Positions 1,662 through 17,274 of a DNA stretch of 17,274 nucleotides are shown here, piece by piece. How positions within the stretch are numbered: position 1 is the stretch's first letter; the number at the start of each line of letters is the position of its first letter. This DNA comes from a virus (taxonomy: Duplodnaviria > Heunggongvirae > Uroviricota > Caudoviricetes): the IMG/VR virus record IMGVR_UViG_2802429232_000009. One strand, 5' to 3'. The notes below the pieces were generated by a model, which saw only the letters and a program-made list of their open reading frames with translations, was not told where the DNA came from and made no database searches. Made by a program: the position numbers and the translations under genes.

Positions 1662-2117
1662 TTAAGGATGGGATTGCCAGCTACTTACTAAGGCATACAA
1701 GTGATTTGGTGAGTATCGCCAGCTATCTTTTAATTGCAGGAATTCAGCACAAAATTCACTGCAAAACAGGCGATCGCACTGTTCTTTATTGCCGGTGATA
1801 ATTCCTAAGGCTCCGCGCCAGTCGTATTTTTTGCCATCATGTTTATGGAAAAACGTTTCCACGTCCTGAAGGCAGGCCTGGAGCGGCAGCATATCCCACT
1901 TATCTGGCGGTAAAGGCATTATCTTTCCCCGAACGCCGCGATCGCGTAGTGATGCAGAGTAACAAAGGTAACTCTTTTCACCATGCTTAACGGCTAATTC
2001 ACAGTGGGAATAACTACCACGTGTCACTTTACGGGTAAACCAGTCAGCCAGTCGGGCAATACCACGGTGCTCTGTTCGGCCCTTATAACAAGCGAGCCAG
2101 ACAGTGGTTTTACTCAT
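1662..2117 (-). CDS. Hypothetical protein (151 aa), last gene of the tail operon; function unknown
   Basis: ATG at 2117..2115 overlaps the TGA of the upstream Tfa gene (ATGA overlap), implying translational coupling. Contains several Cys/His (WLACYKG, YSHCEL, CSEFCAEF) but no family I can name with confidence. Confidence 0.6.
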   Translation of the reverse strand: MSKTTVWLACYKGRTEHRGIARLADWFTRKVTRGSYSHCELAVKHGEKSYLCYSASLRDRGVRGKIMPLPPDKWDMLPLQACLQDVETFFHKHDGKKYDWRGALGIITGNKEQCDRLFCSEFCAEFLQLKDSWRYSPNHLYALVSSWQSHP

Positions 2118-2821
2118 GGTTGCCAGCCTGTGGAGTAATCGTAGTCGAGCACCGCCTGAATATCGTCCAGTGCTTCCACCGCCGCGATATGGTGCTGAGC
2201 GTTGGCGAATAAGCGCATATCGTGATCCATTGTTACCGATTCAAACTGGGCGGCGATTTCGTTGGTTAACTCGATCAGACCGTTATTTTTAGTTTTCCAC
2301 ATTAAACCTGGTGGAATTTTTTTCTCCGCTCCCATTTTTGTGAGTGAGATCTGTTGAATTCGGCTGTTTGTATCACTGTGGAAGTGATGGTCGTTGATGA
2401 TGATGTAGTTGGTTGTGATGGTATCGCGTTGATTTTTGATTGCAGAGTATTTCGCCTCTTTAGCATCGGTTATAGATGGTTGCCATTTTTCACCATCCCA
2501 ACGTTCAAAAGAACCTGATGGGGCAATGATGGTGACAGTTTCAGGTAATTGACCCAATTCTTGAATAATAAGCTGGCTACCATCAACTTTGTTATAAACA
2601 GTTTGCCCGCGATGATCTTCAATGTGCTCCCATTTTTCATTCACCCAAACAGGAGTAAAACCTGAAACCTTTTCGGGTGGTGAATTTAATGTGCAATGAT
2701 TTGGCAAACCTGTATTAGGTGCAATGTATGCATCAGACTCACCGATATATTCTTGGGTGTCTTGTGAAAAATTATAAACAGTCAGTATTTGAGCTTCATC
2801 GGAAAATGTAAAAGTATTCAT
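2114..2821 (-). CDS. Tail fiber assembly protein / chaperone (Tfa, Mu U / P2 G family), 235 aa
   Basis: Immediately downstream of the tail fiber gene with an ATGA start/stop overlap at 2818..2821. The N-terminal region has the Tfa-type pattern ([17 protein letters not shown] ... [10 protein letters not shown] ... WDGEKWQ); the C-terminal 100 aa are divergent. GAGG Shine-Dalgarno present. Confidence 0.8.
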
Positions 2822-4443
2822 GCTAGCCTCACAATATAATTGAATGCGATATTTTTAACGGTGTTTTCGGTATTGCCGGTATTATTAATGGTTATAGAGT
2901 GATTATGGGCCCCAAGTGGAATTGAATGTGAATGGGTACCAATTGAAAGTTCATGTGTATGGCTACCCAATGCGATAGTATGTGCATGGGTACCAATGGC
3001 TGTAGTATGAGAGTGATCACCTACTGCATCGGTATTAACAAAATCATAACGAGAGTCACCGATAGAATCAGCGGTTAGTGCATTGCCACCGTAATCAGCA
3101 TCACCTTTACATGTTATTTGATGTGAATGGCCACCTGTGCTGGTCGACGATTTACTTCCGTGATTGAACGACGATGTTGTCTTAGAGCCAAGATCAGAGG
3201 CAGATACCGTTTTGTTTCCAAAATCAAAAGATGATGTTGCTTTTGTCCCTAAATCCGTACTAGAAATACTGCCCGTATGGTTGTGCGATTTAACCCCATC
3301 CAGTTCAGTAGATAATATATTACGCCCACTGCTGGTTTTCCCTTTAATTATCCATCCACGCATATCAGGGATGACGCCAGACGGATATGCAATTGCCAGT
3401 TTGGGATATGAGGCTTTATTAAATGTCTGACCTGTCATCAGGGCGTAGCCAGAAGGTACAGAATCAGACGGCCAAGGAATAGGCATCCCTACAGGGCAGC
3501 TTTCCGCAGCACTAGCCTTATCATACGCCGCCTTCACCGCACTCGGCGTAGCCGCCTCCGTCGTACTGTTGCTATCCGTCGCATTACTAAGCTTCACAAT
3601 CCCTTTTTGTGTCAGGGTGCCGTCCGGAATACCCGTAATCTGCCCCCAGGGGTGTGTATGACTACCCGCAGCCTTACCGTTCGCCAGGTCATACGCCGCC
3701 TTCACCGCGCTCGGTGTCGCCGCCTCTGTCGTGCTGGTGCTATTGGTCGCATTATTAAGCTTCACAATCCCTTTTTGCGTCAGCGTACCATCCGGTATAT
3801 CAGTAATCTGACTCCAGGTATGACGATGATTTCGAGCCTCAATCATTGCCGCTTTCACCGCTTTTGGCGTAGCCGCTTTGGTTTCGTCATCACTGTCAGT
3901 GGCGTTACTTAACTGCGTAAAGCCTTTTTGCGATAACGTAGCATCAGGGTGATTAGTCGAACGTTCATGTTCATCCAGTTGCGAATCAACATAATCCCGT
4001 GTTGCCAGCACAATACTGGGATCAACGGTGAGCGTTACCGCTGCCGTATTGGAAACTTCCATAATGAGACGAATGCAAACTTGCTTACCGCTGCCGCCGG
4101 GTAATAGCGGTTTATACGACTCCGGGAATTTACCGATAGCAATGAGTTCACCATCGGTATCAAAAACACCGACTTCACGTACATACCAGCCGCCGATATT
4201 TTCTGGCAGTACAAGTTCCGCAATTAACCAGTTAGGATTATTAGGCGCAACTGTTAATGTATTTAAATCACCGCGCCATACTTCATGGCGTAATTTAGTT
4301 TGGCTGACGGTGGGTTCATAATATTGCCCTCCGCTGTCGCCAACAGCCATTTTTTGTAGATGAAGCTGTTTTTTATCCGCCAGGGCATTGGCAATTTTTG
4401 CCATCCCTCTGTCAGTGAGTAGAGTATAAAACTCATTATCCAT
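2818..4443 (-). CDS. Tail fiber protein (541 aa): P2 gpH / Mu S-like N-terminus, tandem repeats, His-x-His-rich C-terminal tip
   Basis: The N-terminal block ([21 protein letters not shown] ... [29 protein letters not shown] ... ATPKAVKAA) is the conserved tail-fiber N-terminal domain of P2/Mu/lambda-type fibers. Three copies of the TLTQKG-x-VKLSNAT...[13 protein letters not shown] repeat follow. The C-terminus has six HxH motifs (HSH, HSH, HAH, HTH, HSH, HNH). GGAG Shine-Dalgarno; ATG at 4443. Confidence 0.9.
3514..3945 (-). repeat. In-frame tandem direct repeats of about 168 bp (56 codons) inside the tail fiber gene; two well-conserved copies plus one degenerate copy
   Basis: The 20-mer tcatacgccgccttcaccgc occurs at 3521 and again at 3690 (period about 168 bp), with long near-identical tracts between them. 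The third, degenerate copy is around 3846..3945. Confidence 0.8.
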
Positions 4444-4445
4444 AA

Positions 4446-5078
4446 TTACTCCGGGTAAATATATGTAATTTCAAGGCTCCATTGCCCTGCTCCGTAATAG
4501 ATTGATGTGTTTTGCTGTACTTCCCGTATCTGGAAAGGTAAAACCGTCGTCAGTTCACCACCATAAAGCGCACAGCCAATAACAGGAATAGCACTTTGGT
4601 TAATGATCCAGACGATTAATGCTTCCAGTTTTGAACGTGTATTTTTATATTCATGAATGAGTTCTACCAGATTATTGAAAAGGTTTTCATCCATGCCTTT
4701 ATCCACCAGCTCTATATCAACCTTAAAAAAATAAGCCTTTCCCTCATATTCAAACCATTCTGAAATAGTTCCTGGTAGAGAAAGTATTTCCAGTACCCGC
4801 CGTACCGCCCAAATCGTTCCTTTATATTTATGCAGCTCAATGGCTTGCTTAATTAACTCTCGCTTCTCCCGTTCATCAGTGGTAAATAACCAACCTTCCA
4901 GCCCCTGAACGTGAAATTGTTCTGCAAGGGCAGGTAATGCCGAAGCATCAACTAGGTCTACCAGATAAACCATCAACGCCGTCAGATCGAGTTGGGCAAA
5001 ACGCTCGGCGGCGATATTTGCCAGAGTTGAAAAACGCTCATCGCTGGCAAGCGGCGGTGGCGGCAGCAATTTATCCAT
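4446..5078 (-). CDS. Baseplate/tail protein, P2 gpI / Mu gp48-like (about 210 aa)
   Basis: Position between the gpJ-like and tail fiber genes. I prefer the ATG at 5078..5076 (GGAG Shine-Dalgarno 9 nt upstream; overlaps the TAA of the upstream gene) over the TTG at 5093 used in the ORF track. Confidence 0.75.
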
Positions 5079-6186
5079 CGCTGACTCCGGCAATCGTGAC
5101 GTCTATCGCGGTGCATTCCGCCCACTCATGCGCCTGCAAAATACGTTTTGTGGGCATGTTCAGCACAACGTCATAGACGCCATCGACCTGCAATACTTTG
5201 ATTATCTGGTTTGGCACAATGTCCTGTCCCAGATGTGTCTGCCGCTGTTGCGTCCAGAGGCTAATCGCTTTACGCGCCGCAGCCAGCGTTGTCTCCTGAT
5301 CGGCAGTGGTAAACAGTGTGAGCTGCGCACGGATCTCATACGGCACCCTAACGGCGCATTTCGCACTTACTTTGTCGGTCAGCGGACGTTTTTTCTCCTT
5401 ACTAACCTCCAGTTCAATTTGCGCGAGCAGTTCCACGCCCGGCAGACCATTCAGCGTTAGCGGGTAGATCTCCACGCAGCCTTCTGGTAATCCTTCGTCC
5501 GGCCCCAGGACCGCAACGTCAATAATCGACTGGCTTACGGAAAGCGTATGAAAGCGGTAGGCACCATAGCTACCCGCATTACTGAAACTTTCCGGCGCCA
5601 GTTGGATCCGTTGGCGCAGTGCGTCATCACTCTCTTCACCGCAGCCGCCCGTTGAAGCAGTCAGGTTGGTTACGTTGATATCGTAATAACCAATCCTGTC
5701 AACAAGGGCGCTAATTTGTGCAGGCTGCCAGCCATTGCCCGCTTCGCCTGTTGTCAGACTGGTGGCGGGAACGGCGATATGCAAACTTCCCGCCGGAATC
5801 AGAACATCTTCATCGGTAGCAAACATCACGCTGTCAGAGGCGCTGGCTCGTGTTCCTTGGGGGATCAGGATGTTGCTTGTATACGCATTGACTACCGAAA
5901 ACTGCAACGTCGTTTTTGCTGGCTGCGCAGGTAAGCGGTGAACGCCCACCAGTTCCCCTAAATAATCCAGCATTGGCGCGCGGGAATACGCGACCAGGTT
6001 CTGTTTCGCCGCTTCCTGAATGGCGATGCGTACAAGGTTTTCACGATAGGCAAAAAGGTCAATCAGCAACCGCTCGGCCTGTGCCGGGTAGAGCTTTTTG
6101 CCGCTGGCATCTTCGTACTGCGCAATCATCTCGCTGGTAATTTGCGCAGGATCGCGGTCAATAAAATTGGGTTCGGCTATCGCCAT
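5071..6186 (-). CDS. Baseplate wedge protein, P2 gpJ / Mu gp47-like (371 aa)
   Basis: Size and synteny (gpW-like, gpJ-like, gpI-like, fiber). GGAGGTG Shine-Dalgarno; 10-nt overlap with the upstream gpW-like gene. Confidence 0.85.
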   Translation of the reverse strand: MAIAEPNFIDRDPAQITSEMIAQYEDASGKKLYPAQAERLLIDLFAYRENLVRIAIQEAAKQNLVAYSRAPMLDYLGELVGVHRLPAQPAKTTLQFSVVNAYTSNILIPQGTRASASDSVMFATDEDVLIPAGSLHIAVPATSLTTGEAGNGWQPAQISALVDRIGYYDINVTNLTASTGGCGEESDDALRQRIQLAPESFSNAGSYGAYRFHTLSVSQSIIDVAVLGPDEGLPEGCVEIYPLTLNGLPGVELLAQIELEVSKEKKRPLTDKVSAKCAVRVPYEIRAQLTLFTTADQETTLAAARKAISLWTQQRQTHLGQDIVPNQIIKVLQVDGVYDVVLNMPTKRILQAHEWAECTAIDVTIAGVSDG

Positions 6187-6536
6187 AACACCTCCGTTGA
6201 GTTGATTACGCCGTCAGCGGTGCGCCATTGCACACGTAACGTCAGATGTTCCCCGTCGATTACCGGTGTCACCTTCAGCAACCGGCAGCGCGCTTCCCAC
6301 TGGCGAATGGCCTCTACCGACTCCCGTACCACATGCGGGATCGCCCGCTCGATGGGATAATCGATGTAGTGCCACAAGTTGCTACCAAACAGCGGTCTGT
6401 GGGGATCACTGCCGCGCGGTGTGCGCAGAATGATGTGTATTGCCTGGTGAATATCATCCAGTCCGCAGACGTATTCTTCAGGCCGCTGCAAGGCGGGTTG
6501 CCAGTGCAGCGTAGAGGGGCGTGTTTTCGTGTTCAT
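6177..6536 (-). CDS. Baseplate protein, P2 gpW / T4 gp25 / Mu gp46-like (119 aa)
   Basis: Motif LDDIHQAIHIILRTPRGSDPHRPLFGSNLWHYIDYP matches the conserved gpW/gp25 core. Weak Shine-Dalgarno. Preceded by a 98-bp gap containing a terminator. Confidence 0.8.
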   Translation of the reverse strand: MNTKTRPSTLHWQPALQRPEEYVCGLDDIHQAIHIILRTPRGSDPHRPLFGSNLWHYIDYPIERAIPHVVRESVEAIRQWEARCRLLKVTPVIDGEHLTLRVQWRTADGVINSTEVLWR

Positions 6537-6597
6537 GAGGGCATTTTCGCCCTGAACAGGCGGAGGAGATATTAAAGCGGTTTAGAAAACTGGTTGA

Positions 6598-6629
6598 TTA
6601 AAAAGAGAAAACCCGCCATCAGGCGGGTT
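6598..6629 (-). terminator. Intrinsic (rho-independent) terminator for leftward transcription, inside the tail operon
   Basis: Perfect 8-bp GC-rich stem (6610..6617 pairs with 6622..6629) and 4-nt loop, followed on the minus-strand RNA by UUCUCUUUUU. Starts 6 nt after the spike gene stop (6635). Not a terminator on the plus strand. Confidence 0.65.
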
Positions 6630-6634
6630 AAAAG

Positions 6635-7336
6635 TCAGTGTGAATGGTGGTTGGAGTTGCCACCGCTGTCCTGCAATGTGCCGCTGGCCTGCACGTTACC
6701 AATCACGTTGACATTGCCGGTTATCGTGGCGGCATTACCGATGCCTCCACTTCCTGCCATGCCACCCAGCCAGGTCAGTTTTTTCATCACCGTTACGTTG
6801 CCGGTAAAGGTACTGAGCGGTGCGTCTACCGTTACAGTCATCGCTTTAACATCCACCTTACTGGCTTCAATGCTGACATCGGTGGCTTTCACATCAACAG
6901 TGTCGGAAGTCACGGTGACGTGTTGGGCTTTAACCTCAACGTTGGGCGATGTCAGGCGGGTACGGTCGATAACCTCAATCACGATTTTTTCAATGCCGCC
7001 ATTAATCGTAAGCTGGTGGGTGCTGCGGTCATATTCAAACGCTGCGCCATCGGAAAACTGGACATACCTTTTATCGCGCGATGCTACTGGCGCGGTATCT
7101 ACCGTTGAATATACTGCGCCCAGCACTACTCCATCTTCACCGTTATCATCCAGCAGAACTTCCACCTGCTCTCCCATATCCGGTAGCCAGTAGTCTTTAT
7201 TGTCCTGAGAATTGCGCTGCAGCACCGCAAGCCAGTTACTCTTCAGATTGTCACACTCTGGTAGCGTGACCCGCACCCGAACGCTGGTTTCGTCAATATC
7301 ACTGATAATCCCCGTTTGCCGGGTTACTCCTTTCAT
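6635..7336 (-). CDS. Baseplate central spike, P2 gpV / Mu gp45-like (233 aa)
   Basis: Strong AAGGAGG Shine-Dalgarno. N-terminal OB-fold-like region and repetitive beta-rich C-terminal half (VTV/VDV repeats) ending in a His cluster (NSNHHSH). Position after the gpD-like gene. Confidence 0.8.
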   Translation of the reverse strand: MKGVTRQTGIISDIDETSVRVRVTLPECDNLKSNWLAVLQRNSQDNKDYWLPDMGEQVEVLLDDNGEDGVVLGAVYSTVDTAPVASRDKRYVQFSDGAAFEYDRSTHQLTINGGIEKIVIEVIDRTRLTSPNVEVKAQHVTVTSDTVDVKATDVSIEASKVDVKAMTVTVDAPLSTFTGNVTVMKKLTWLGGMAGSGGIGNAATITGNVNVIGNVQASGTLQDSGGNSNHHSH

Positions 7337-7345
7337 ATTGCCTCC

Positions 7346-8386: not shown

Positions 8387-8583
8387 GGTGGGATCTCCGA
8401 TACGGTTTTGTTGACGGAAATGACTGGAATAATGAGCTGAATACCGGAAGGCAGTACCGGATAAATGGCGACATGTGGATTGGCGGCGATAATGCGTTCG
8501 TAAGCCAGTGCATCACCGTAGTAATGCCATGCCAGATTATCCCAGCGTTCGCCGTCGGTGGTGATATGTTCAAGGTATCGCAT
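8374..8583 (-). CDS. Small tail protein, P2 gpX-like (LysM-like fold), 69 aa
   Basis: GAGGAG Shine-Dalgarno. TAATG stop/start overlap with the upstream gene at 8583..8585. Motif YGD..AYERIIAANPHVAIYPVLPSGIQLIIP resembles tail protein X. Sits between the gpU-like and gpD-like genes as in R-type tailocin loci. Confidence 0.65.
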   Translation of the reverse strand: MRYLEHITTDGERWDNLAWHYYGDALAYERIIAANPHVAIYPVLPSGIQLIIPVISVNKTVSEIPPWLR

Positions 8584-9536: not shown

Positions 9537-11905
9537 CAGGCATACCCCCGGCGCTGTTGCTGCGCCATTACGTCGTTAATCATTCTTTCCAGTTCGCGTT
9601 TACTCATCGTCAACACGTTCTGAATGTCTTTAGTGGTGTTTTGTCCGTTACTCTGCACGGTAATTTGTGGCGAAAAATTCACCTGGACTTTTCCCAGGGA
9701 ACGGGAGGGTAGCGTCGCCGGTTTGGTTACGGATTTACCAGGTAAAGAGGCCGACGCGGGTTTTGCCGCTGGCGCCGATGACGGCGTAGCCGTTTTGCTG
9801 GATGGCGCGAGTTGTTTGCCCACAGGCGGCGTTAAAAGCGCACCGGCAACGCCTGGAACAACGGTCGCGGGGGAGACTGATGCGGTATTAGTCGTGCCTG
9901 TAACAGCCGCAGCCGATGCTTCTGTGCTGATCCCCATTGTGGCTTTTAGCCAGTCTGGCATGGCGTTTTTGACCTGATCAATAATGCTTTTCAGAGCGGG
10001 GAAAGCATTCATTATGCCGTCGGCCAGACTACCCAGTATATTGCTGCCGAACTCGCTAAAACTCGCAGGCATCTCAACACCAAACCAATTCATCACATCG
10101 GAAAAGGCGCTGTAAAACAGCCCCAGTGGCGACCAGTCGAGAATCAACCGGCTAATACCAGCAATGCCGCCATCAAAGGCCGTGGTGATACGTTGCCAGA
10201 TGGCGGAAAATAACCTGGATATAGGTGCCCAGTTGCGATAAATCAGATAAGCCGCGCCCGCAATCGCAGTGATGACCAGACCAATGGGATTCATCAGTAG
10301 CACCCGACCTAGCGAGAGAACGGTTCGACCAACCAGTTTCAATGCTCCGATCAGGCCACGACCAAGCAGTTGCGTTAGCCATTTTGCGCCGCCACCCAAT
10401 GACTTAACCGCCGATAGCACCTTACTTGCCGTGCCTCCGAGCGCCAGACTTGCCCTCACTTTCAGGAAGATATCGACCAGACGAATAAACGGCGAGGCGA
10501 TGAAGTTCGCGCCCAGCTTTAAAACATTCAGCGCACCGTTAAACAGCCAAATCGCCCCGACGATTTTCGCAATGTTTTGCACCAGCGCCGGATGTTCGCG
10601 TAGCCAGGCGCTGAACTGGCGAATAACCGGCGCAAGGCTTTGCGCCAGCTCGCCAATCGCCGGCATAAGTTGTAAGCCAATGCTGAGCCATAAATCATTT
10701 AACGCCAGTTGTAACGCTTTAGTCTGTTCAATGGGCGAGGCCATTTGCGCAGAAAAGTCAGCGTTAATCAGATTCTTGCTGGTGGCTTGCATGGCAGAGG
10801 CTTTTAGCTGGCGATATTCCTCCATATTCGCCAACATAGGAGCCAGAAATTCCACCGTTTGCGCATCGCCGAACATTTCGCCCAGATTAAATTGCGTCAC
10901 CATCGATTGCAGCGCAGTGCTGCGGGCAGATAAATCTTCAATCTGCATGGTGCGTTTGAAGGTATCGAGGATCGCCGGATTCATCTTCTCAAGCTGCATT
11001 TGCACGATATGAGTCATAGCTTCGCTAACACCCATACCGTTTTGCTGATGCTCAAGCAGAGAACCTTGCAGATCGACCCCCTGGCTGGCGAACCAGCTAT
11101 CGGTTTTTTTCGAAAAGGTGGTTTGCAGAAAATGAGCGAAATTTTCCGTCGCCGCACTGGCGCTGGCACCGTTTTTCATGGCGATCTGCATGGTGGCGGC
11201 CAGTTCAGCCATACCTTCCAGACCCTGAGCGCCGGTTTTACCTGCAAATTTCTCTATCCACTGCGTTTGTTCGGTAATGGCAGGCCCACCGCTTTTGGTA
11301 ACGCTGTACATCATGTTTTGCGCAGCGTGGAAATTTTCTGGGGCAATATTCAGTCGATCATGAGTCGCGAGCGCGGCTTTCGCCCATGTTTCGGCGCTGT
11401 CGCGCGTGGCGGTGGCGGCTTTGGCGATCTCCGGCATATAGCGGTTGAGATCCTGCAAGGACGATATGTTGCCTTCAACTAAGGTCAGAGCGGCGGACTG
11501 TAACGTGGTCTGCTGCTGGTTAAAATCCATACTCCAGTCGCGCAGATTAAGGCTGAGCGTCTCGCGGGTGGCATCACTCATCCCGCCTTTGGTCGCCATA
11601 TTGACCATATTGACCATATTGTCCTGAAACTCATACGGCAACTTCCAGTCGGGGGCTTCAACATTAAATACTTTGCTAAATTGCCCGGCAAATGTTTGGG
11701 TTTTCTCCATCAGATTAGCGCGGCTGCGGCTATTTTCCTCCAGGCGGAGAGCGGAATTGGCAAGCCGCTGCGTTAGTTTGATAACTGTCGCTTGCTGAGT
11801 AGAGAGAGTTAACAATGTTCTGGCGTTGAGTGAGCCGTAACGGGCTATTGCCTGCGTCAACGTCTCATTACGCGCCTGAAGCTGGGTAATAATATCGTTG
11901 GCCAA
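9536..11905 (-). CDS. Tail tape measure protein (789 aa)
   Basis: Largest ORF, directly after the chaperone gene. Long helical N-terminal part, a central hydrophobic glycine-rich segment, and a Pro/Ala/Ser/Thr-rich tract near the C-terminus. The only available start is TTG at 11905 (in-frame TAA 15 nt upstream; AAAGAG Shine-Dalgarno-like motif). Confidence 0.85.
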   Translation of the reverse strand: MANDIITQLQARNETLTQAIARYGSLNARTLLTLSTQQATVIKLTQRLANSALRLEENSRSRANLMEKTQTFAGQFSKVFNVEAPDWKLPYEFQDNMVNMVNMATKGGMSDATRETLSLNLRDWSMDFNQQQTTLQSAALTLVEGNISSLQDLNRYMPEIAKAATATRDSAETWAKAALATHDRLNIAPENFHAAQNMMYSVTKSGGPAITEQTQWIEKFAGKTGAQGLEGMAELAATMQIAMKNGASASAATENFAHFLQTTFSKKTDSWFASQGVDLQGSLLEHQQNGMGVSEAMTHIVQMQLEKMNPAILDTFKRTMQIEDLSARSTALQSMVTQFNLGEMFGDAQTVEFLAPMLANMEEYRQLKASAMQATSKNLINADFSAQMASPIEQTKALQLALNDLWLSIGLQLMPAIGELAQSLAPVIRQFSAWLREHPALVQNIAKIVGAIWLFNGALNVLKLGANFIASPFIRLVDIFLKVRASLALGGTASKVLSAVKSLGGGAKWLTQLLGRGLIGALKLVGRTVLSLGRVLLMNPIGLVITAIAGAAYLIYRNWAPISRLFSAIWQRITTAFDGGIAGISRLILDWSPLGLFYSAFSDVMNWFGVEMPASFSEFGSNILGSLADGIMNAFPALKSIIDQVKNAMPDWLKATMGISTEASAAAVTGTTNTASVSPATVVPGVAGALLTPPVGKQLAPSSKTATPSSAPAAKPASASLPGKSVTKPATLPSRSLGKVQVNFSPQITVQSNGQNTTKDIQNVLTMSKRELERMINDVMAQQQRRGYA
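11596..11621 (-). repeat. Short in-frame tandem repeat (9-bp unit ccatattga, about 2.9 copies) inside the tape measure gene
   Basis: Read directly: gccatattgaccatattgaccatattgtcc. It encodes the duplicated tripeptide in DNMVNMVNMA. Confidence 0.7.
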
Positions 11906-12094
11906 AATTGTTTCTCTTTAAATATTGATAATGGCCCGCTGGTTATTTTTCTAAAAAAAGGGGCAGGGAAGAAATAAACCTGACGGGCTTGGGAAACTCG
12001 CAGACATCAGGTCTGCGAGCCATATTCGATTTTTATTTGGGCGTTGGCTTCATCCAGCCAGTTGCTAAAGTCATCGACGGTAAGGGCGTCTATC

Positions 12095-12412
12095 TCACTG
12101 GGCGGAAAGCGAAACCATCTCGCCAGTAGCGCCATTGCCTGCCATAGCAGGGGAGGATTCTGTAACCACGCTAAGCATAGATTGAAATCGTTTCTGCAAT
12201 GCCTGGTAATCCAGCAAATCCATTTCAGCTAAATCTTCTGGCACCAGTCCGGTCATTGCAGCCATTAGCGGTTCATCCCACTCTTCTGGTTTTTCGCTGA
12301 TCCGGCGGGCGTTGCGCATATCTTTTACTTTCAGGCGACGTAATTGCAGAGTGTTAATTACGTCTCCCGCCGCTGAAGTAAACGGGAACTGTAAGATATA
12401 ATGTTCTTTCAT
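12095..12412 (-). CDS. Tail assembly chaperone (P2 gpE / Mu gp41 / lambda gpG-equivalent position), 105 aa
   Basis: Small acidic ORF between the tube and tape measure genes. AAGGA Shine-Dalgarno. An overlapping alternative-frame ORF extends 3-prime of it (see findings). Confidence 0.7.
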   Translation of the reverse strand: MKEHYILQFPFTSAAGDVINTLQLRRLKVKDMRNARRISEKPEEWDEPLMAAMTGLVPEDLAEMDLLDYQALQKRFQSMLSVVTESSPAMAGNGATGEMVSLSAQ

Positions 12413-12439
12413 TTTGTATCCTTATTTATCATGCGGAAA

Positions 12440-12457
12440 TCGGGGCCGTAGCCCCGA
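12440..12457 (-). terminator. Hairpin between the tube and chaperone genes; possible attenuator or mRNA-stabilising stem-loop
   Basis: 7-bp perfect stem (TCGGGGC/GCCCCGA) with 4-nt loop in the 50-bp gap downstream of the tube stop. Followed on the minus-strand RNA by UUUCC only, so at most a weak terminator. Confidence 0.35.
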
Positions 12458-12462
12458 ATAAC

Positions 12463-12987
12463 TTAGCCACCGATGTTATTGCGATAGGTACTTAATTGAT
12501 CCACGCCGTTAACGCGGAAAATATTCGCCAGGTAATCCAGCTCCAGCAGTGTTTCACCATCGACCACCTGTTTAATATAGGTACAACCAAAGGCGCTGCT
12601 GAATTCCGGGTTTTCATTTTGTTTAAATGTTCCCAGTGGATTCTTTTTAAACATAACAGTCAAATGAGTGACTAACGCTAATTGATTCGCTTTCCCCTGG
12701 GAGTTATAGCAATCAATACTGGAGCGGCACTGTAATGCTACCGCCTGCCACGGGTTTGCCGTTTTACGCATGACGTCCTGATAAAAGGAGTTCCATTTAA
12801 TTTCCCCTTCCAGTTTATCGAAACCTGCCGGGAGCTCGATTTTACCGACCATGCCCAGTGCTTTATGCTCCTGCATAATTAAACTGACATCCGGTAATTT
12901 AATTTCGGTTGCACGACCTAACAGGTTATTACCATCGAGATAAATATTGGCATTGGTAATACGGTTAATTTGAATTTTTCCAGCCAT
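12463..12987 (-). CDS. Tail tube protein (P2 FII / Mu M-like), 174 aa
   Basis: Directly follows the sheath gene with a TAATG stop/start overlap at 12985..12989. GGAGAG Shine-Dalgarno. Size and position typical of contractile-tail tube proteins. Confidence 0.85.
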   Translation of the reverse strand: MAGKIQINRITNANIYLDGNNLLGRATEIKLPDVSLIMQEHKALGMVGKIELPAGFDKLEGEIKWNSFYQDVMRKTANPWQAVALQCRSSIDCYNSQGKANQLALVTHLTVMFKKNPLGTFKQNENPEFSSAFGCTYIKQVVDGETLLELDYLANIFRVNGVDQLSTYRNNIGG

Positions 12988-14411
12988 TAGCTATTGCTCT
13001 CCAGAGAGACTAAATATTCAGAAGTAATTTCAGTTTCAAACGTCAGACGTTCCAGCGGCGGTGGCGGGGTGAATTTATAGCTCAGCAATAAATGCCCGGC
13101 GCTGAGTTCGGTCGGTGAATTTCGCGCCGGATCGTACCAGCACTCAAAGCCAAGCAGTGCGCCGTCGGCAATCAGCTTACGGCCCCAGGTATTTACCGAC
13201 TCGGTCAGGGCATCAATTAGCGCCTGATTAATCGGCATATCGATATACTGCTGGCTGAAATAGCGGATCGACTCGTTAATCACATCGCCCGTGCGGCGAA
13301 CGTTTTCAAAGTTACGCATATGGGTCACGGTAGGCCATGCCGCAGTGCGGTTGCCCCATAAACGCAGACCAGAGCCGTAACTATTGAAAACTGTGGTAAT
13401 GCCGTTTTCGTTGAGCTGATTCACTTCACTTTGCGGGTCATCAACCATTGCGGAAAGTGAACGTTCGATACCGATAATGCCCTGAATTTCCTGGTTTGAG
13501 TTACTCCACCAGAAACCTTTCTCCAGGTCTACTTTGGCACGCAGTCCGGCAGCGCGTGAAGAGAGCGGTTCGAGAACTTCCTGGTTGGTTGAGCCGTCAT
13601 AAACTTTGACGTGCGGATAGCATAAACGCGCACGGTCAGAACTGGTGTTGAAGTTGATTGCGCCTTTCGAGCCGCGACCAGCCAGCACCTGCTGGAATGT
13701 AGTACCGATTGGGGCGTCAATGTAGGCGATAGCACCGAGTTTGTCCGCCTGAGCAATCAGCTCTGTGGTGACCGATTTTTGCGTACAGAAAACCGGAGCA
13801 AGCAGGATTTTGGCGTAGAAACCATACAGATTATAGGTGTCCTGTAGCAGTTTCATCCCCGTGCGATCGCCTGCGGTATTAACGGCGCCAATAATATCGG
13901 CTGCGGTAACTTTTGTTGGATCGGCCCATGAGTAATAGGCGCAAACTTTCGCTCCGGCAGGGATCTCAGTTTCTGCACGAGTGATTATTCCTGTTTGTTC
14001 ATCAACATGAAACGCTGTGCTGCTATACGTGGTGGCTGATGTTGAAGAGGGTTTCAGGACAACATTACGCACCGCACTATGAGCCAGTTTCGCCTGGTTG
14101 TTGGAATCAAAAGTGATACTCTCATTGCTGATGCTGGAGCCATGTTTTACCGGGTCCAGTACGTTAATCACCACCACCGTACCAGCGCCGTGGTCGTAAA
14201 TCGCCTTCAGCGCCTGCGGGATCGTAAAGTTAGCCTGAGTCGAGCCAAACTGCGCGGCATCGCTTTCAGAAAGGCACAATGTTGGTTTGTTTACCGGACC
14301 GCATGGTGCACTACCGATTAAAGCGATTACAGCGGATTTTACCGCTTTAACCGGGCGCGGACCGGTTTCAATTTCAATGGTTTCGACACCGTGCAGGTAA
14401 TTAGCTGCCAT
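12987..14411 (-). CDS. Tail sheath protein (Mu L / P2 FI-like), about 474 aa
   Basis: Large ORF immediately upstream of the tube gene. I prefer the ATG at 14411..14409 (GGAGAGG Shine-Dalgarno 8 nt upstream; overlaps the TAA of the preceding ORF) over the TTG at 14417 in the ORF track. Confidence 0.9.
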   Translation of the reverse strand: MAANYLHGVETIEIETGPRPVKAVKSAVIALIGSAPCGPVNKPTLCLSESDAAQFGSTQANFTIPQALKAIYDHGAGTVVVINVLDPVKHGSSISNESITFDSNNQAKLAHSAVRNVVLKPSSTSATTYSSTAFHVDEQTGIITRAETEIPAGAKVCAYYSWADPTKVTAADIIGAVNTAGDRTGMKLLQDTYNLYGFYAKILLAPVFCTQKSVTTELIAQADKLGAIAYIDAPIGTTFQQVLAGRGSKGAINFNTSSDRARLCYPHVKVYDGSTNQEVLEPLSSRAAGLRAKVDLEKGFWWSNSNQEIQGIIGIERSLSAMVDDPQSEVNQLNENGITTVFNSYGSGLRLWGNRTAAWPTVTHMRNFENVRRTGDVINESIRYFSQQYIDMPINQALIDALTESVNTWGRKLIADGALLGFECWYDPARNSPTELSAGHLLLSYKFTPPPPLERLTFETEITSEYLVSLESNS

Positions 14412-14598
14412 GTACAATTTCCTCTCCGGTATTTTGTTCTTCCTGAGTGATGACGGGAGTCAGATGATTGCGGGCAATCATGGTCATGACCCACTCGTTG
14501 TCTTCTGGCAGATCAATTTCACTGTTCGGCCACAATAAGATTTCTTGTCCGTCGGCAAGGGTGACGCCGCTTGCCGGGCCGTTGTAGATATATTTCAT
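14401..14598 (-). CDS. Small phage protein (65 aa), Mu gp38-like position; probable tail completion / neck-proximal protein
   Basis: ATGA overlap with the upstream ORF at 14595..14598. GAGGAA Shine-Dalgarno. Acidic. Position directly before the sheath gene. Confidence 0.55.
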   Translation of the reverse strand: MKYIYNGPASGVTLADGQEILLWPNSEIDLPEDNEWVMTMIARNHLTPVITQEEQNTGEEIVHGS

Positions 14599-15050
14599 TC
14601 AGTTTCCTCGTAATTAACTTCAGTAAGCAGGGTAAGGTCCGCGCTTTCCCGTTTCGCGATAAACAGCGAGCTGGTCGCCATTTCCAGGATGTAGCGGCAG
14701 AAACCACCGCTCTCGCCTGCATTGATTTCTTTTTCAAGCCAAAGAAGACGCTCGCAATCAGGAAGCTGGATCCCTCCCAGTGCGCTGCGTATGCGATCCA
14801 GTGCGTTTAACGCGTCACAATTTTTGCCAACAATAACGGTGGCAGTTAAGCGGAGCGTTTGCTGTTGCACGAGAGCATCACTGCTTTCAGGCATGGCAAA
14901 TAGAGAACCGCTATAATTAATAATTACTGTAACTTGCTGTGTCTGTGGAATATATTTCTGGGCATCGACCGATGAAATAAATACGTCCATTTCGGGATTC
15001 TGTTCACGTAATCTGGTCACAACAGAATTCATTACAGATAAAATTTCCAT
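14595..15050 (-). CDS. Phage protein (151 aa), Mu gp37-like; probable tail completion / sheath-initiator protein
   Basis: AAGGA Shine-Dalgarno. Position between the lysis cassette and the sheath gene, where Mu-like phages encode tail-completion proteins. Family assignment from memory only. Confidence 0.55.
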   Translation of the reverse strand: MEILSVMNSVVTRLREQNPEMDVFISSVDAQKYIPQTQQVTVIINYSGSLFAMPESSDALVQQQTLRLTATVIVGKNCDALNALDRIRSALGGIQLPDCERLLWLEKEINAGESGGFCRYILEMATSSLFIAKRESADLTLLTEVNYEETE

Positions 15051-15167
15051 ATAGGGTGTTCCTTAATTATTGCTGATTCGTTAACGCTTACTCCGTTATC
15101 GTTGAAATGTATTCTGACGTAGTGAAGGTGAAGGATCTTTTAATCTGCTTTAGAGAAAAAATTGAAT

Positions 15168-15482
15168 TTAATAGCTGCCACGTTGTAATAGCTCTATTTT
15201 GCTATATAAGGCATCCAGCTTTGCTTCTAATACTGCCTGGCCACGAAGATAATCTTCTCTGCGGACATAATGCAGCGGAAGCTCGGCACGAAATTCGAGA
15301 AATTCTCTTTCCAGTTTCGACCAATTTGTTTCTGATTCCCGGCGTGCGTTTTCCAGAGATTCAAAACGCTCATTAAGTCTTTTTTCAATTTGTGCTAACA
15401 GCAATTTTCCGGCAGCAAACATTAATCCAACGAAGGAAAGCATAAGGGAGATCACTTCCCAAAAATCGATACTGAGTTTCAT
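15168..15482 (-). CDS. Lysis accessory membrane protein (104 aa): N-terminal TM helix plus coiled coil; i-spanin-like or Mu gp25 (releasin)-like
   Basis: GAGGAG Shine-Dalgarno 5 nt upstream. One hydrophobic segment (VISLMLSFVGLMFAAGKLLLA) followed by a charged helical region. Located directly after the lytic transglycosylase gene. Confidence 0.55.
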   Translation of the reverse strand: MKLSIDFWEVISLMLSFVGLMFAAGKLLLAQIEKRLNERFESLENARRESETNWSKLEREFLEFRAELPLHYVRREDYLRGQAVLEAKLDALYSKIELLQRGSY

Positions 15483-15494
15483 CGGCTCCTCTGT

Positions 15495-16103
15495 TTAGTG
15501 AAGACAGCTTGCCTGTCCCCAGAGTAAGTAGCGGGCGGCATGTTGATAGAGGATCATCTTCGGGTAGTGACGATTTTCTCGCCAGTTCGCGGCGCTACGC
15601 CCGGCGTTGACGTGTTCAACATGACCAAACCAGATAGTGGCATCTAACCCTTTGGATGCGGCCAGTTTTTTATCCCGGTTAACCCATCCCTGACCGCCGT
15701 TATAGGCGCTTAGGGTAAATGCCATACGCTGACAGTCATTTTTCGCAGAGATGTTTTTCCACAAATGCTGGTCATATTGCACCAGCGCGCGAATCGCCCA
15801 GGTTGGGTTATAGGGCTTATTTTCACGTAGCTGTGGATACAACTGGCTTATCCATGTCGCTGTGGCAGGCATAAATTGCGCCATACCTTGTGCGCCGACG
15901 GGGGAACGCGCCATTGGCTGCCAGGCGGATTCCTGGTGTAACTGCCCGGCGAAGTCCGCCACCGGGGCGTTCAGCCCCCAGACTTCTCGTGCAGTTCGAA
16001 TCAGTTCGTTTCGCCATGCCAGAGATGCTCGCGGCGGTTCAGATGCGTTAAGCGGGAAGAACGCGAACAGAGTAATTAGCGCGAGAAATTTTACCTGCAT
16101 CAT
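15495..16103 (-). CDS. Lytic transglycosylase (SLT domain) endolysin with an N-terminal signal peptide or SAR-type sequence, about 202 aa
   Basis: Catalytic-site region LHQESAWQP ... AQGMAQFMPATA is the family-1 lytic transglycosylase signature. I place the start at the ATG at 16103..16101 (MMQVKFLALITLFAFFPLNA-SEPP), which overlaps the TAA of the upstream gene (TAATG). The longer 16199 start in the ORF track would overlap the upstream gene by 97 nt. Confidence 0.85.
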   Translation of the reverse strand: MMQVKFLALITLFAFFPLNASEPPRASLAWRNELIRTAREVWGLNAPVADFAGQLHQESAWQPMARSPVGAQGMAQFMPATATWISQLYPQLRENKPYNPTWAIRALVQYDQHLWKNISAKNDCQRMAFTLSAYNGGQGWVNRDKKLAASKGLDATIWFGHVEHVNAGRSAANWRENRHYPKMILYQHAARYLLWGQASCLH

Positions 16104-16390
16104 TAAAGTCCTAACGCGACGGAAAGGCAGACGGCTGCAACGATGATAGCCCGACGAATCATTGCCGCCGCGCAGCATCGCGCCTCTTCCCAAGGGCAAA
16201 ATGAGTCAGGCCGCGCCCAGGGAAACAGACTGCGATCGAGCCAGTATCCCAGCACAGCGGAGAGCGAAACCAGGCTTAGTTTATAAATGACTACCGGGAT
16301 CTGTGCGGAAGATGTCCAGCCGATCACGACAAACAGCGCGACGGAAGCGACCAGCCAGCCGGAAAGCCGGGGAAAAGTGACTTTTTTCAT
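16103..16390 (-). CDS. Small membrane protein with 3 predicted TM segments (95 aa); holin/antiholin candidate, first gene of the leftward operon
   Basis: Strong AGGAG Shine-Dalgarno 8 nt upstream of the ATG at 16390. Three hydrophobic stretches. Translationally coupled to the endolysin gene. Holin identity is positional inference only. Confidence 0.55.
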   Translation of the reverse strand: MKKVTFPRLSGWLVASVALFVVIGWTSSAQIPVVIYKLSLVSLSAVLGYWLDRSLFPWARPDSFCPWEEARCCAAAMIRRAIIVAAVCLSVALGL

Positions 16391-16926
16391 ACGATATCTC
16401 CTGATAAGTGAGCGTTTAGTGTCGCCAGATCCCTCCAGTGAAGAATGAAAAAAGCTTTAATAAATAACTTTAAAAAATAGATCCTCTATAAATGAACATG
16501 CTCGCTAATAAATCCACCCATTAATAAAAGAGCAAAAGGTGACCTGGCGAATAAGCGCGTCATTATGCAGGGAAAAGAGGATGGTGGATCGTAGGAGTAG
16601 TCAGTAGTTATTTGATTTTTAAAGTTTGTTTAAGAAAGTTAGCGACTGTGAGGGAAACGATCTTTTTATACTACAGGTAAAATAATACTGTATGTGTATA
16701 CAGTATCGTGTAAAATGATACTCCAGTTGACAAGAAACGTAACGCAAACAATATATTTATTTTGTGAATTTATGGTGTTCATTAATATTAAAAATTTATA
16801 TTTTTGGTGATTGTTTATTTGTTTGTTGAATGTATTGAGTAGCAGTAATGACAACTGCTTAGCGTATATCCGTGGTTTTACACGCATCGGGTCTTATACA
16901 GGATGCAAGATATATGGAGATGAAAA
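16391..16926. promoter_or_regulatory. Divergent AT-rich control region between the lysis/tail operon (leftward) and the Mor-family activator gene (rightward)
   Basis: 536 bp with no ORF of convincing coding character on either strand. Contains the LexA box below, a TAAAAT -10-like hexamer at 16711..16716, a TTGACA at 16727..16732, and three TAATAAA heptamers at about 16459..16528. Confidence 0.6.
16686..16705. promoter_or_regulatory. LexA (SOS) box: TACTGTATGTGTATACAGTA
   Basis: Perfect CTGT-N8-ACAG palindrome with the conserved flanking TA dinucleotides. Differs from the enterobacterial consensus TACTGTATATATATACAGTA only at two central spacer positions. A -10-like TAAAAT lies 5 bp to its right, so the box overlaps the -35/spacer of a candidate rightward promoter. 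Confidence 0.6.
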
Positions 16927-17274
16927 ATGATACGAAAATCAAAAGAGATGGCCCGGACACCGGAGATCATTAACGACCTGGCGTTTCATGCATCGCAAGT
17001 TCTGATTGAGAGCATCAATCTCGACAGCTCATCGGCGGAAAATGTGGGCTTTGCCATTGCTGACCGAATGATGCGTAACTGGGGGGGGCAAAGCATTTAT
17101 TTCCCGAAAGGGATCTCTGGACGGGCGTCGGAGCGTGACTACCAAATCTATAGCGAGTGCGATGGTCGCAACTACGCCGAATTAGCGAAGAAATATAATC
17201 TGACGCTGCAATGGATTTATAAGATAGTGAAACGCGTACATGCGGAAAAGCAACAGCGCCGTAGTAATTCGTAA
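16927..17274 (+). CDS. Mor/C-family phage transcriptional activator (115 aa)
   Basis: C-terminal region GGQSIYFPKGISGRASERDYQIYSECDGRNYAELAKKYNLTLQWIYKIVKRV aligns by eye with the DNA-binding C-terminal domain of Mu Mor (GGGQVYIPRG ... DFNGRNVSELTTRYGVTFNTVYKAIRRM). GGAG Shine-Dalgarno 7 nt upstream; stop TAA at 17272..17274, the window edge. Confidence 0.85.
   Translation: MIRKSKEMARTPEIINDLAFHASQVLIESINLDSSSAENVGFAIADRMMRNWGGQSIYFPKGISGRASERDYQIYSECDGRNYAELAKKYNLTLQWIYKIVKRVHAEKQQRRSNS

Follow-up and report, generated by a model that had tools for sequence, protein, structure and literature searches.

Gene content, borders and chromosomal site

The window analysed here is a stretch of 17,274 nucleotides, and positions 1662-17274 form a shared module in which all genes annotated with Pfam and PHROG lie on the minus strand except mor (Table 1). 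All components of a contractile tail were recovered by Pfam in the order of Mu gp37-gp50, together with a lysis cassette of its own, a Mor-type activator next to it and only two small ORFs separating the lysis genes from the sheath gene, as a preliminary description had claimed. The endolysin has a signal-like segment at its N-terminus, and the membrane protein encoded after it is 46% identical to BcepMu gp25 and 51% identical to a PhiKM membrane protein. The two small ORFs have their sequence counterparts in BcepMu gp37 and gp38 (46% identity for the 65-aa protein) and their positional counterparts in Mu gp37, the tail terminator, and gp38. The first of them matches a solved homologue of six chains (2GJV, E = 5e-55), which is also matched by the Salmonella Gp37 (STM4215). 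The best solved relative of the sheath is that of an R-pyocin (3J9Q, pyocin PA0622), the gpU-like hub protein carries a coiled-coil C-terminal extension, and the chaperone piece E' was called in the source contig as an overlapping gene of 42 aa (RefSeq annotation 'GpE family').

Table 1. Genes and predicted regulatory elements of the window, by position
Feature	Position	Strand	Evidence or remark
GT4 LPS N-acetylglucosaminyltransferase	1-1152	minus	AT-rich (33-38% GC); strain-specific cargo outside the shared module
Permuted NlpC/P60 (YiiX-like) cysteine hydrolase, 151 aa	1662-2117	minus	Last gene of the shared module
Tail fibre assembly protein, 235 aa	2114-2821	minus	Pfam Caudo_TAP, DUF4376; PHROG 1807, 105
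Tail fibre, 541 aa	2818-4443	minus	Pfam Phage_tail_fib, Phage_fiber_2, Collar; mosaic
gpI baseplate protein, 210 aa	4446-5078	minus	Pfam Tail_P2_I, E = 2e-34; gene call in source contig
gpJ baseplate wedge, 371 aa	5071-6186	minus	Pfam Baseplate_J, E = 8e-64
gpW/gp25 wedge, 119 aa	6177-6536	minus	Pfam GPW_gp25
P_bp, putative late promoter	6543-6589	minus	TTTTCTAAACCGCTTTAATATCTCC - N16 - GAAAAT; upstream of gpW
Intrinsic terminator	6610-6629	minus	After gpV; 8-bp stem, 6 GC pairs, T-run
gpV spike, 233 aa	6635-7336	minus	Pfam Phage_base_V
gpD/VgrG-related baseplate hub, 346 aa	7346-8386	minus	Pfam Phage_GPD; NCBIfam VgrG_rel
Tail protein X, 69 aa	8374-8583	minus	Pfam Phage_tail_X, E = 1e-23
gpU-like hub protein, 317 aa	8583-9536	minus	Pfam Phage_P2_GpU, E = 1e-33; PHROG 788 tail protein
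Tape measure protein, 789 aa	9536-11905	minus	Pfam PhageMin_Tail
Tail assembly chaperones E and E'	12007-12412	minus	Pfam Phage_TAC_7; E 12095-12412, overlapping frameshift piece E' 12007-12135
Tail tube, 174 aa	12463-12987	minus	Pfam Phage_tube, E = 5e-56
Tail sheath, 474 aa	12987-14411	minus	Pfam Phage_sheath_1, Phage_sheath_1C
65-aa protein, putative sheath terminator	14401-14598	minus	Positional equivalent of Mu gp38; PHROG 895
Gp37-family tail terminator, 151 aa	14595-15050	minus	Pfam Gp37, E = 1e-32
P_tail, putative late promoter	15109-15160	minus	TTTTTCTCTAAAGCAGATTAAAAGATCC - N18 - GAATAC; immediately upstream of Gp37
Single-pass membrane coiled-coil protein, 104 aa	15168-15482	minus	BcepMu gp25 homologue
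SLT-type lytic transglycosylase endolysin, 202 aa	15495-16103	minus	Pfam SLT, E = 4e-15; 52% identical to BcepMu gp22
Holin, 95 aa	16103-16390	minus	Pfam Holin_2-3, E = 3e-27; PHROG holin; ~50% identical to BcepMu gp21
Block A (P_lys), putative Mor-dependent late promoter of the lysis unit	16454-16478	minus	ATTTTTTAAAGTTATTTATTAAAGC; nearly invariant in four genera
Block B, tentative late-promoter core copy	16614-16624	minus	CTTTAAAAATC; inverted relative to block A
LexA (SOS) box	16686-16705		TACTGTATGTGTATACAGTA; 18/20 consensus matches, both half-sites perfect
Sigma-70-like promoter toward holin	16687-16714	minus	TTTACA-16-TACAGT; promoter scan
mor, Mor/C-family late transcription activator, 115 aa	16927-17274	plus	Pfam Mor, E = 7e-38; PHROG 'late transcriptional activator'

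A tblastn search with all BcepMu and PhiKM proteins (E <= 1) returned no homologues of head, terminase, portal, transposase, repressor or Rz proteins, not even remnants, in line with the claim that head, packaging, transposition and integration genes are missing. In BcepMu the Rz/Rz1 genes precede gp25, whereas they are absent at this locus, and no lipobox ORF was found in positions 14900-16500.

The window is 100% identical to a stretch of contig PTRD01000020.1 (assembly GCA_002965005.1), where mor is directly followed by lysC and then by pgi and yjbE/F, while on the other side yjbD, rluF, ccdAB, pepE, yjbB and metH come after the GT4 gene. The same chromosomal site, bracketed by lysC and yjbD, is occupied in four genera (Escherichia, in E. 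coli, as well as Salmonella, Superficieibacter and Phytobacter). The left flank does consist of the AT-rich glycosyltransferase described before (NCBIfam NF012028, 675.6 bits vs. a cut-off of 618), but homology to the E. coli loci begins only at 1639-1650 and so leaves this gene out; other strains carry slipin and nucleotidyltransferase genes in its place.

Regulatory sequences

The product of mor, which is divergent from the lysis and tail genes, matches the solved structures of Mu Mor (1RR7) and Mu C (9L0X), and is 49% identical to BcepMu gp01. It is also 100% identical to the E. coli copies (dN = 0 at dS = 0.26), values that indicate extreme constraint on Mor.

The LexA box is the sole CTGT-N8-ACAG in the window (0.13 expected) and is conserved in all four genera, while the rest of the mor-holin spacer has diverged; in some E. 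coli, ISEc53 sits within its central 8 bp. It overlaps the spacer and the -10 of the sigma-70-like promoter, the -35 of which falls in a block (GTGTAAAATG) that is invariant in the four genera and that offers, on the plus strand, a possible -10 for mor (TAAAAT, 16711-16716). The SOS box may repress mor, the leftward promoter, or both.

Three BcepMu-type late-promoter motifs, one each for the lysis, tail and baseplate/fibre units, are conserved across genera along with the LexA box. Block A is related to a motif found upstream of the BcepMu holin (TAAAGCCGATTAAAAGACC). P_tail matches the two intergenic late-promoter copies of BcepMu, which stand exactly in front of its lysis and head operons (before the holin and before the head gene gp32), and is conserved 5' of Gp37 in E. 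coli, Salmonella, Superficieibacter, Phytobacter, carotovoricin and Chromobacterium, while the P_bp motif precedes gpW in BcepMu, PhiKM, carotovoricin, E. coli and Salmonella. Block B resembles CTTTAAAATC, present upstream of the holin in PhiKM, Brenneria and carotovoricin, and is conserved only in Escherichia, Salmonella and Phytobacter. By analogy with Mu Mor and C, these late-promoter motifs would be bound by Mor. A terminator hairpin also lies 3' of the lysis unit in E. coli, Salmonella, Superficieibacter and Phytobacter; given this one and the one after gpV, the downstream units would need activator-dependent promoters of their own.

Relationship to phages and known tailocins

Gene order and the Mor/C-family activator are those of Mu, but the tail proteins have no similarity to Mu detectable by tblastn, with Mor/C as the only match, and Mu itself was rejected as the ancestor type in favour of a BcepMu-like phage. 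Identities of the tail proteins are 28-39% to P2 and 26-71% to BcepMu, and the closest intact phages are Bcepmuvirus members (BcepMu, phiE255, E. coli PhiKM, Klebsiella KP12), which have sheaths 71-74% identical to that of the locus and agree with it in the order of their tail genes, in the lysis genes and in having a Mor/C activator and the late-promoter motif. Genes for transposase A/B, repressor, terminase, portal, capsid, connector and Rz/Rz1 occur in the phages but not at the locus. Compared with BcepMu, the losses are clean and comprise gp02-gp20 (early, transposition and repressor genes), gp23/24 (spanins) and gp26-gp36 (packaging and head), whereas the activator, holin, SLT endolysin, gp25, tail terminator, the full set of tail and baseplate genes, the fibre together with its chaperone, and three late promoters were retained. 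On the BcepMu map, the divergent arrangement of mor and holin is explained by the deletion of gp02-gp20.

Carotovoricin (Ctv/Er, Pectobacterium) likewise has no head genes and runs in the same order from the holin (Holin_2-3) through SLT, gp25-like, Gp37, 65-aa protein, sheath, tube, chaperone, tape measure, U, X, D, V, W, J and I to the fibre, and it shares the late-promoter motifs before Gp37 and gpW. Its sheath and tube are 76% identical to those of the locus, the other proteins 26-67%. It differs in its site (after the prt protease-secretion operon instead of lysC/yjbD), in keeping an Rz-like gene of 224 aa and a gp26-like gene, and in having neither an adjacent mor nor a LexA box, both of which are found here. 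As its similarity to the locus is no higher than that of free BcepMu-like phages, a common headless ancestry of the two is possible. The lack of a spanin (Rz/Rz1), unlike in BcepMu and carotovoricin, may make particle release inefficient.

R-type pyocins, xenorhabdicin, kosakonicin, dickeyocin and BceTMilo are machines of the same kind and draw on the same protein families. Induction linked to SOS and release by lysis are features of R-pyocins and P2-like tailocins, and both are predicted for the present locus from its sequence. R-pyocins have regulators of the PrtN/PrtR type. P2-like tailocins follow the P2 order (V-W-J-I-H-G, then FI-FII-E-T-U-D), which the locus does not, and kosakonicin and BceTMilo, the latter using Ogr (PMC5411513), derive from P2-like phages while the locus is BcepMu-like. 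The earlier view that a Mor-driven tailocin in Mu order would be unusual was overstated: carotovoricin, a characterised tailocin with the same holin-SLT-Gp37-sheath architecture, is described as a 'Mu-type tailocin' that is SOS-dependent and has no dedicated repressor (bioRxiv 10.64898/2025.12.09.693261), and the P. syringae tailocin was reported as a derivative of a Mu-like phage (PMC4684702). Mu-order tailocins are thus already known, and the locus would add one more.

In Salmonella Typhimurium LT2, the 'phage remnant' STM4198-STM4219 between yjbD and lysC is the orthologous locus, with the same site, genes, LexA box and promoters and with proteins 60-95% identical; what sets the Salmonella copy apart from the window is gtrABC, placed between gpV and gpW, and a gene for a hexapeptide acetyltransferase at its fibre end. 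In the literature searched, we found no paper that treats STM4198-STM4219 as a tailocin, no functional study of the lysC/yjbD tail locus and no report of particles or killing from it.

Selection and probable function

All genes of the locus are full length in the four genera, and dN/dS was 0.00-0.39 for all 19-20 genes in comparisons with E. coli, Salmonella and Superficieibacter, even at saturating dS, and their dS values resemble the ones of lysC and pgi in the flank. That every gene is under purifying selection, and that the SOS box and late promoters are conserved, argues for a maintained and regulated element and not for debris. An inert prophage fossil, i.e., what is left of a BcepMu-like prophage after the loss of head and early genes, now without a function, is unlikely on these grounds, even though the locus is missing from 96% of complete E. 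coli genomes (carriage 203/5426), IS elements have inserted in the regulatory spacer and elsewhere in E. coli, the spanins are missing and gtrABC interrupts the Salmonella copy. The regulatory motifs were kept within a diverged spacer, the deletions left no pseudogene debris, and the gtr insertion lies exactly between the terminator and the next promoter, with no gene broken. The rarity of the locus and the IS-split SOS box of some E. coli do show that it is dispensable and sometimes silenced.

The tails could also serve a purpose other than that of a bacteriocin, for example being donated to the heads of BcepMu-like phages, co-resident or incoming (with an effect on host range), or injecting the cysteine hydrolase encoded by the last gene. 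Consistent with this, the tail terminator Gp37, the head-docking surface in phages, was retained, BcepMu-like prophages with ~76% identical sheaths circulate in E. coli, and the fibre unit ends with a gene for a YiiX/TseH-like hydrolase. We nevertheless consider such uses improbable. Pfam and NCBIfam annotation turned up neither genes for effector loading nor a toxin/immunity pair, and no domain for attachment to a tail could be recognised in the hydrolase. Carotovoricin, the nearest homologue that has been characterised, is a bacteriocin according to the literature consulted, and the locus's own lysis cassette and predicted SOS control fit a model of suicidal bacteriocin release. It is highly implausible that a complete phage is split here, with its tail genes at the locus and its head genes elsewhere: the sole support for this was the boundary of the window, the caveat of the preliminary description that head genes could lie to the right of mor, where lysC-pgi were found in the source contig, and with housekeeping genes on both sides there and in all relatives examined, a head module in adjacent DNA was rejected and the headless reading upheld.

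The locus probably stems from a BcepMu-like transposable phage that lost its head genes and became domesticated. It would thus be an R-type tailocin of the carotovoricin family, fixed between lysC and yjbD, and most likely acts as a DNA-damage-induced bacteriocin of the carotovoricin type. DNA damage would lead to LexA self-cleavage and so free the one SOS box between mor and the holin gene. mor would then be expressed, possibly with a leftward transcript, and Mor would activate the late promoters of three units, namely lysis, tail (Gp37 to gpV) and gpW to fibre. Tails would then assemble with a Gp37 hexamer as cap and no head joined, and the holin and the exported transglycosylase would lyse the producer and let the particles out. 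The fibres would bind surface polysaccharides of related strains, followed by sheath contraction that would push tube and spike across the envelope and kill by depolarisation. The N-terminal 150 aa of the fibre are 92-96% identical to Salmonella and 62-66% to E. coli, while the C-terminal region differs between E. coli strains, a mosaicism expected for an arms race in receptor binding.

Gene content of the tail and lysis locus

Searches with Pfam and PHROG bore out the contractile-tail parts, lysis cassette and Mor-type activator that the preliminary description had placed in the window. The contractile-tail set is complete, comprising terminator, sheath, tube, chaperones, tape measure, hub, spike, wedges, fibre and fibre chaperone, all tail ORFs are intact, and every gene between 1662 and 16390 is encoded on the minus strand. 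The AT-rich glycosyltransferase noted on the left flank was assigned to family GT4.

Features of the locus and its left flank, in reading direction of the minus-strand genes
Feature	Coordinates	Strand	Position
Mor-family protein, 115 aa	16927-17274		divergent from the rest
LexA-like operator	16686-16705		mor-holin spacer
Block B, inverted copy of the late-promoter core	16614-16624	minus	mor-holin spacer
Block A, putative late promoter	16454-16478		before holin
Holin_2-3 holin		minus	first minus-strand gene
SLT lytic transglycosylase		minus	after holin
Membrane coiled-coil protein (gp25-like), 104 aa		minus	after SLT
Putative late promoter	15109-15160		before Gp37
Gp37-family protein, then 65-aa protein		minus	after gp25-like gene
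Sheath, tube, then E/E' chaperone pair		minus	after 65-aa gene
Tape measure, 789 aa		minus	after E/E'
gpU-like hub protein, tail protein X, gpD hub		minus	after tape measure
gpV spike		minus	after gpD
Putative late promoter	6543-6589		before gpW
gpW, gpJ, gpI		minus	after gpV
Fibre (541 aa), fibre-assembly protein		minus	after gpI
Permuted NlpC/P60 protein, 151 aa	1662-2117	minus	last shared gene
GT4 glycosyltransferase, AT-rich	1-1152		left end of the window

The 17.3 kb had also been described as free of head, terminase, transposase and integration genes, and this held: the head, packaging, transposition, repressor and Rz proteins of the phages BcepMu and PhiKM gave only chance-level matches to the window at E <= 1, and at the same threshold no match was obtained there for the DDE transposase, B-like ATPase, repressor or head module that characterize Bcepmuvirus. 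Head genes might have lain beyond mor, outside the window, but the source contig continues there with lysC, pgi and yjbE/F; no capsid, packaging, replication or integration genes were found in the cluster or in the source-contig flanks. The missing phage functions are absent rather than decayed, and the locus is a real, complete, headless unit of tail, lysis and activator genes. Tail, lysis and regulator without a head, the architecture from which a tailocin had been proposed, agree with the gene content expected of an R-type tailocin. The most plausible reading is an R-type tailocin of the carotovoricin family, belonging to Escherichia and its relatives and predicted to be switched directly by the SOS response; carotovoricin (ctv cluster) is the characterised tailocin of Pectobacterium. 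The locus adds a good candidate for experiments to a kind of tailocin that is already known, and no new principle.

The locus has its own lysis cassette and a regulator with a putative link to stress induction (holin, SLT, gp25-like gene, mor and a conserved LexA box) but no spanin, which is a point against the tailocin reading. No spanin was found in the window with the BcepMu and PhiKM Rz queries or a lipobox ORF scan, and the lysis region holds no lipoprotein ORF. Rz/Rz1 are present in BcepMu (L016 12513-13112) and carotovoricin (L098 7790-8464), unlike in the window. In both Escherichia and Salmonella, SLT is followed by the gp25 homologue, with a clean loss of the two genes in between (window 15483-15494).

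An invertible fibre segment and a DNA invertase have been reported for carotovoricin Er; none of the window ORFs matched a recombinase or invertase family. An Rfam scan of the window found no RNA family. A 73-aa ORF at 16666-16887 was rejected as a gene: no family matched, the sequence is AT-rich, and the ORF runs across the LexA box and promoter, so that it is probably spurious.

Relatives among phages and tailocins

The closest intact phages belong to Bcepmuvirus (BcepMu, phiE255, E. coli PhiKM and Klebsiella KP12), with sheaths 71-74% identical to that of the window. Similarity to Mu is confined to Mor/C, apart from two weak, short matches to gpV and the fibre, and the tail proteins of P2 are 28-39% identical to those of the window. 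The 'Mu order' initially ascribed to the module is therefore true of the gene order, while the lineage is BcepMu-like, since only Mor/C resembles Mu and the closest phages are Bcepmuvirus. In BcepMu, gp01 (Mor/C) ends the leftward early operon; loss of gp02-gp20 would leave gp01 divergent to the holin gene, as here, loss of gp23/24 (Rz/Rz1) would join SLT to the gp25 homologue, and loss of gp26-gp36 would join the lysis unit to gp37.

The carotovoricin cluster has been described from holin to fibres, with lytic transglycosylase, sheath, tube, assembly protein, tape measure, baseplate and spike (PMC13195805). A P. brasiliense ctv locus (L098), reached via a sheath homologue (protein P0088), has the same order as the window, the sheath gene being immediately preceded by Gp37 and the 65-aa gene, and its proteins are 26-76% identical to those of the window. 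It differs in its site, after the prtW-inh-prtDEF operon instead of between lysC and yjbD, in keeping Rz-like and gp26-like genes, and in having neither an adjacent mor nor a LexA box. A Mu-order, Mor-driven tailocin had been expected to be unusual; this is overstated, as carotovoricin is already described as a 'Mu-type tailocin', SOS-dependent and with no dedicated repressor (bioRxiv 10.64898/2025.12.09.693261).

Species-representative genomes were scanned and the loci were then classified with marker proteins. Loci of Brenneria, Lonsdalea (L026, L027) and Paraburkholderia keep the transposase and have no head genes (L020, L021, L023, L026, L027, L058); a repressor match within this group was found only in L020 and L058 (Brenneria izbisi, Paraburkholderia), L023 being too short to judge. 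In the Chromobacterium copies (L043, L046-L048, L051, L052, L054, L056, L057), which lack intervening lysis genes, a Mor/C gene stands right next to the late promoter of Gp37. Most other relatives in the scan are complete prophages, and loss of the head module in the BcepMu-like phage family seems to be recurrent or ancient.

In the literature searched, E. coli and Salmonella tailocins are almost undescribed, no particles or killing have been reported from this locus, and the only paper to announce an E. coli tailocin deals with a full P2-like prophage. Several candidate relatives were rejected: kosakonicin is P2-derived, the published 'ST131 tailocin' is a complete P2-like prophage at another locus, BceTMilo is P2/KL3-like with Ogr, and the Pectobacterium scan match L022 is a full BcepMu-like prophage and not ctv. 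Some short entries of the phage collection that lack annotation ('Escherichia phage ECO95 1-6-1' and 'Salmonella phage S.Kent 1-2-1'; hits H17-H22, H24, H41, H42) match pieces of the tail cluster at 75-96% identity. They resemble parts of related loci on bacterial chromosomes that were submitted under phage names, and the collection also contains an entire Salmonella contig.

Predicted LexA and Mor control

The spacer between mor and the holin gene is 536 bp long and poorly conserved between genera except for a few blocks. One of these, present in four genera, is the LexA-like operator TACTGTATGTGTATACAGTA. It is the sole CTGT-N8-ACAG in the window, agrees with the LexA consensus in 18 of its 20 bases, and reaches into the spacer and -10 of a leftward promoter predicted as TTTACA-16-TACAGT. 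The invariant GTGTAAAATG adjoins the box and in rightward reading gives a possible -10 (TAAAAT) with its -35 region inside the box. Because the box overlaps both the leftward promoter and the rightward -35 region, one LexA dimer could close both divergent promoters. The locus is not mentioned in a survey of the Salmonella SOS regulon. Direct LexA control appears specific to the lysC-linked lineage, since the carotovoricin, Chromobacterium, Brenneria and Lonsdalea loci yielded no box close to the consensus, and a relaxed pattern gave just three weak core matches (L021, L058, L081).

In several E. coli genomes (L009 7877-9767; hits H1, H3, H4) the central 8 bp of the box (window 16692-16699) hold ISEc53, an ISL3-family element with a DUF1706 passenger gene and the target duplication ATGTACAT. 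The insertion parts the half-sites and splits the overlapping leftward promoter, and it looks like silencing of the locus.

In BcepMu, the motif TAAAGCCGATTAAAAGACC with GATGA about 20 nt on is intergenic exactly twice, before the holin gene and before the head gene gp32. Close versions, of the form TAAAG...ATTAAAAG, precede holin, Gp37 and gpW in the window and are candidate Mor sites. Conservation of the Gp37 copy extends to E. coli, Salmonella, Superficieibacter, Phytobacter, carotovoricin and Chromobacterium, and that of the gpW copy also to BcepMu and PhiKM. A Mor/C-family activator is thus accompanied by putative cognate sites at three expected positions and at two BcepMu late operons. 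Mor is the sole activator encoded in the window, and the protein is identical across Escherichia copies at a dS of 0.26. The most economical circuit would be release of LexA, followed by Mor and then by the three late units. For Pectobacterium, carotovoricin is reported to be driven by RdgB, a Mor-like protein placed under the cleavable repressor RdgA (work of Liu et al. in 1994); a search for a named RdgB among Mor homologues yielded nothing beyond close relatives from Escherichia, Salmonella, Enterobacter and Superficieibacter.

A strong terminator follows gpV and, in most relatives, a hairpin terminator follows the lysis unit, so that the tail and baseplate units must start from their own late promoters. 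The lysis-unit terminator is deleted in the window, and the lysis and tail units may for this reason be co-transcribed there. Its form in E. coli, Salmonella, Superficieibacter and Phytobacter (L001, L013, L017-L019) is a GC-rich stem-loop plus T-run behind the gp25-like gene (window equivalent 15051-15167). Blocks A and B of the mor-holin spacer both hold AACTTTAAAAA(A)T, inverted and about 135 bp apart; block B, conserved in three of the four genera, could act as a further Mor site or in DNA looping.

Chromosomal descent, fibre and cargo

The window matches a stretch of contig PTRD01000020.1 (assembly GCA_002965005.1) at 100% identity; on this contig lysC, pgi and yjbE/F come directly after mor, and yjbD, rluF, ccdAB, pepE, yjbB and metH after the glycosyltransferase. 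In DNA, these flanking genes share about 89-95% identity with E. coli, and the host is read as an Escherichia-like lineage. The same bracketing by lysC and yjbD was found in 8 further assemblies with an identical Mor protein, in annotated E. coli chromosomes and in Salmonella Infantis, in which the locus genes carry the LT2 names STM4198-STM4219; Superficieibacter and Phytobacter share the lysC-pgi side, the side that their loci reach. In K-12, yjbD and lysC adjoin each other and the site is empty; comparison with this site gave no target-site duplication, the edges of the insertion being eroded or replaced. The locus occurs in 203 of 5426 complete E. coli genomes (~4%), and an exact match to the Mor protein is recorded for 11,719 indexed blocks of the assembly collection.

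None of the locus genes is truncated in E. coli, Salmonella, Superficieibacter or Phytobacter, and in three comparisons dN/dS lies between 0.00 and 0.39 for every gene, which is evidence of a maintained locus. Synonymous divergence of the element is comparable to that of the flanking genes, both against E. coli (element about 0.05-0.7, pgi 0.27, lysC 0.75) and against Salmonella (about 0.6-3.2, 0.73 and 1.78, respectively). As the element matches its flanks in dS and occupies the same chromosomal site, the data fit descent with the chromosome since before the genera split, followed by frequent loss.

The fibre is a mosaic: its N-terminal 150 residues and gpI are nearer to Salmonella than to E. 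coli, and a C-terminal segment varies among E. coli strains. Within window 2818-5078, the fibre N-terminus is 92-96% identical to Salmonella vs. 62-66% to E. coli, and gpI 85% vs. 70%, which implies recombination between genera at the baseplate-fibre junction.

The last shared gene encodes a permuted NlpC/P60 hydrolase fold of the YiiX type, with His37 invariant and Cys118 nearly invariant. The GT4 gene scored above the curated cut-off for an LPS N-acetylglucosaminyltransferase (NF012028: 675.6 bits vs. 618); the gene falls beyond the stretch homologous to E. coli, and identical copies were found on 7 contigs only. The Salmonella copy carries gtrABC and a hexapeptide acetyltransferase (L013 12514-13802 and 5302-5778) and BcepMu an acyltransferase at the same end (L016 35456-36589), so that surface-polysaccharide modifiers recur beside fibre genes. 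PADLOC defence models gave no match to the cargo genes. Speculatively, such modifiers may shield the producer from its own particles by altering the receptor. A broader reading, which we consider unlikely as a whole, is that of an ancient tailocin older than the Escherichia-Salmonella split and still functional in Enterobacteriaceae, with the phage repressor swapped for host LexA control, the fibre-end cargo conferring self-immunity through changes in the producer's LPS receptor, and fibre type and LPS modification co-varying as weapon and shield. If true, it would tie Salmonella gtr O-antigen variation to tailocin warfare.

As a carotovoricin-family candidate, the locus offers experiments a compact, conserved 15.6-kb unit with a predicted two-step switch (LexA box to Mor to three late promoters) and a visibly recombining fibre. 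If active, it would provide a natural scaffold for narrow-spectrum antibacterials against enteric pathogens, a function for the Salmonella 'phage remnant' STM4198-STM4219, and a clean case of a transposable phage trimmed to a weapon with its late-promoter logic kept.

At the edge of the element, lysC is unusually diverged between the source genome (L012 3228-4577) and E. coli GF130 (L001), with a dS of 0.75 beside 0.27 for pgi and no megablast match for the lysC pair, which suggests recombination or allele replacement.
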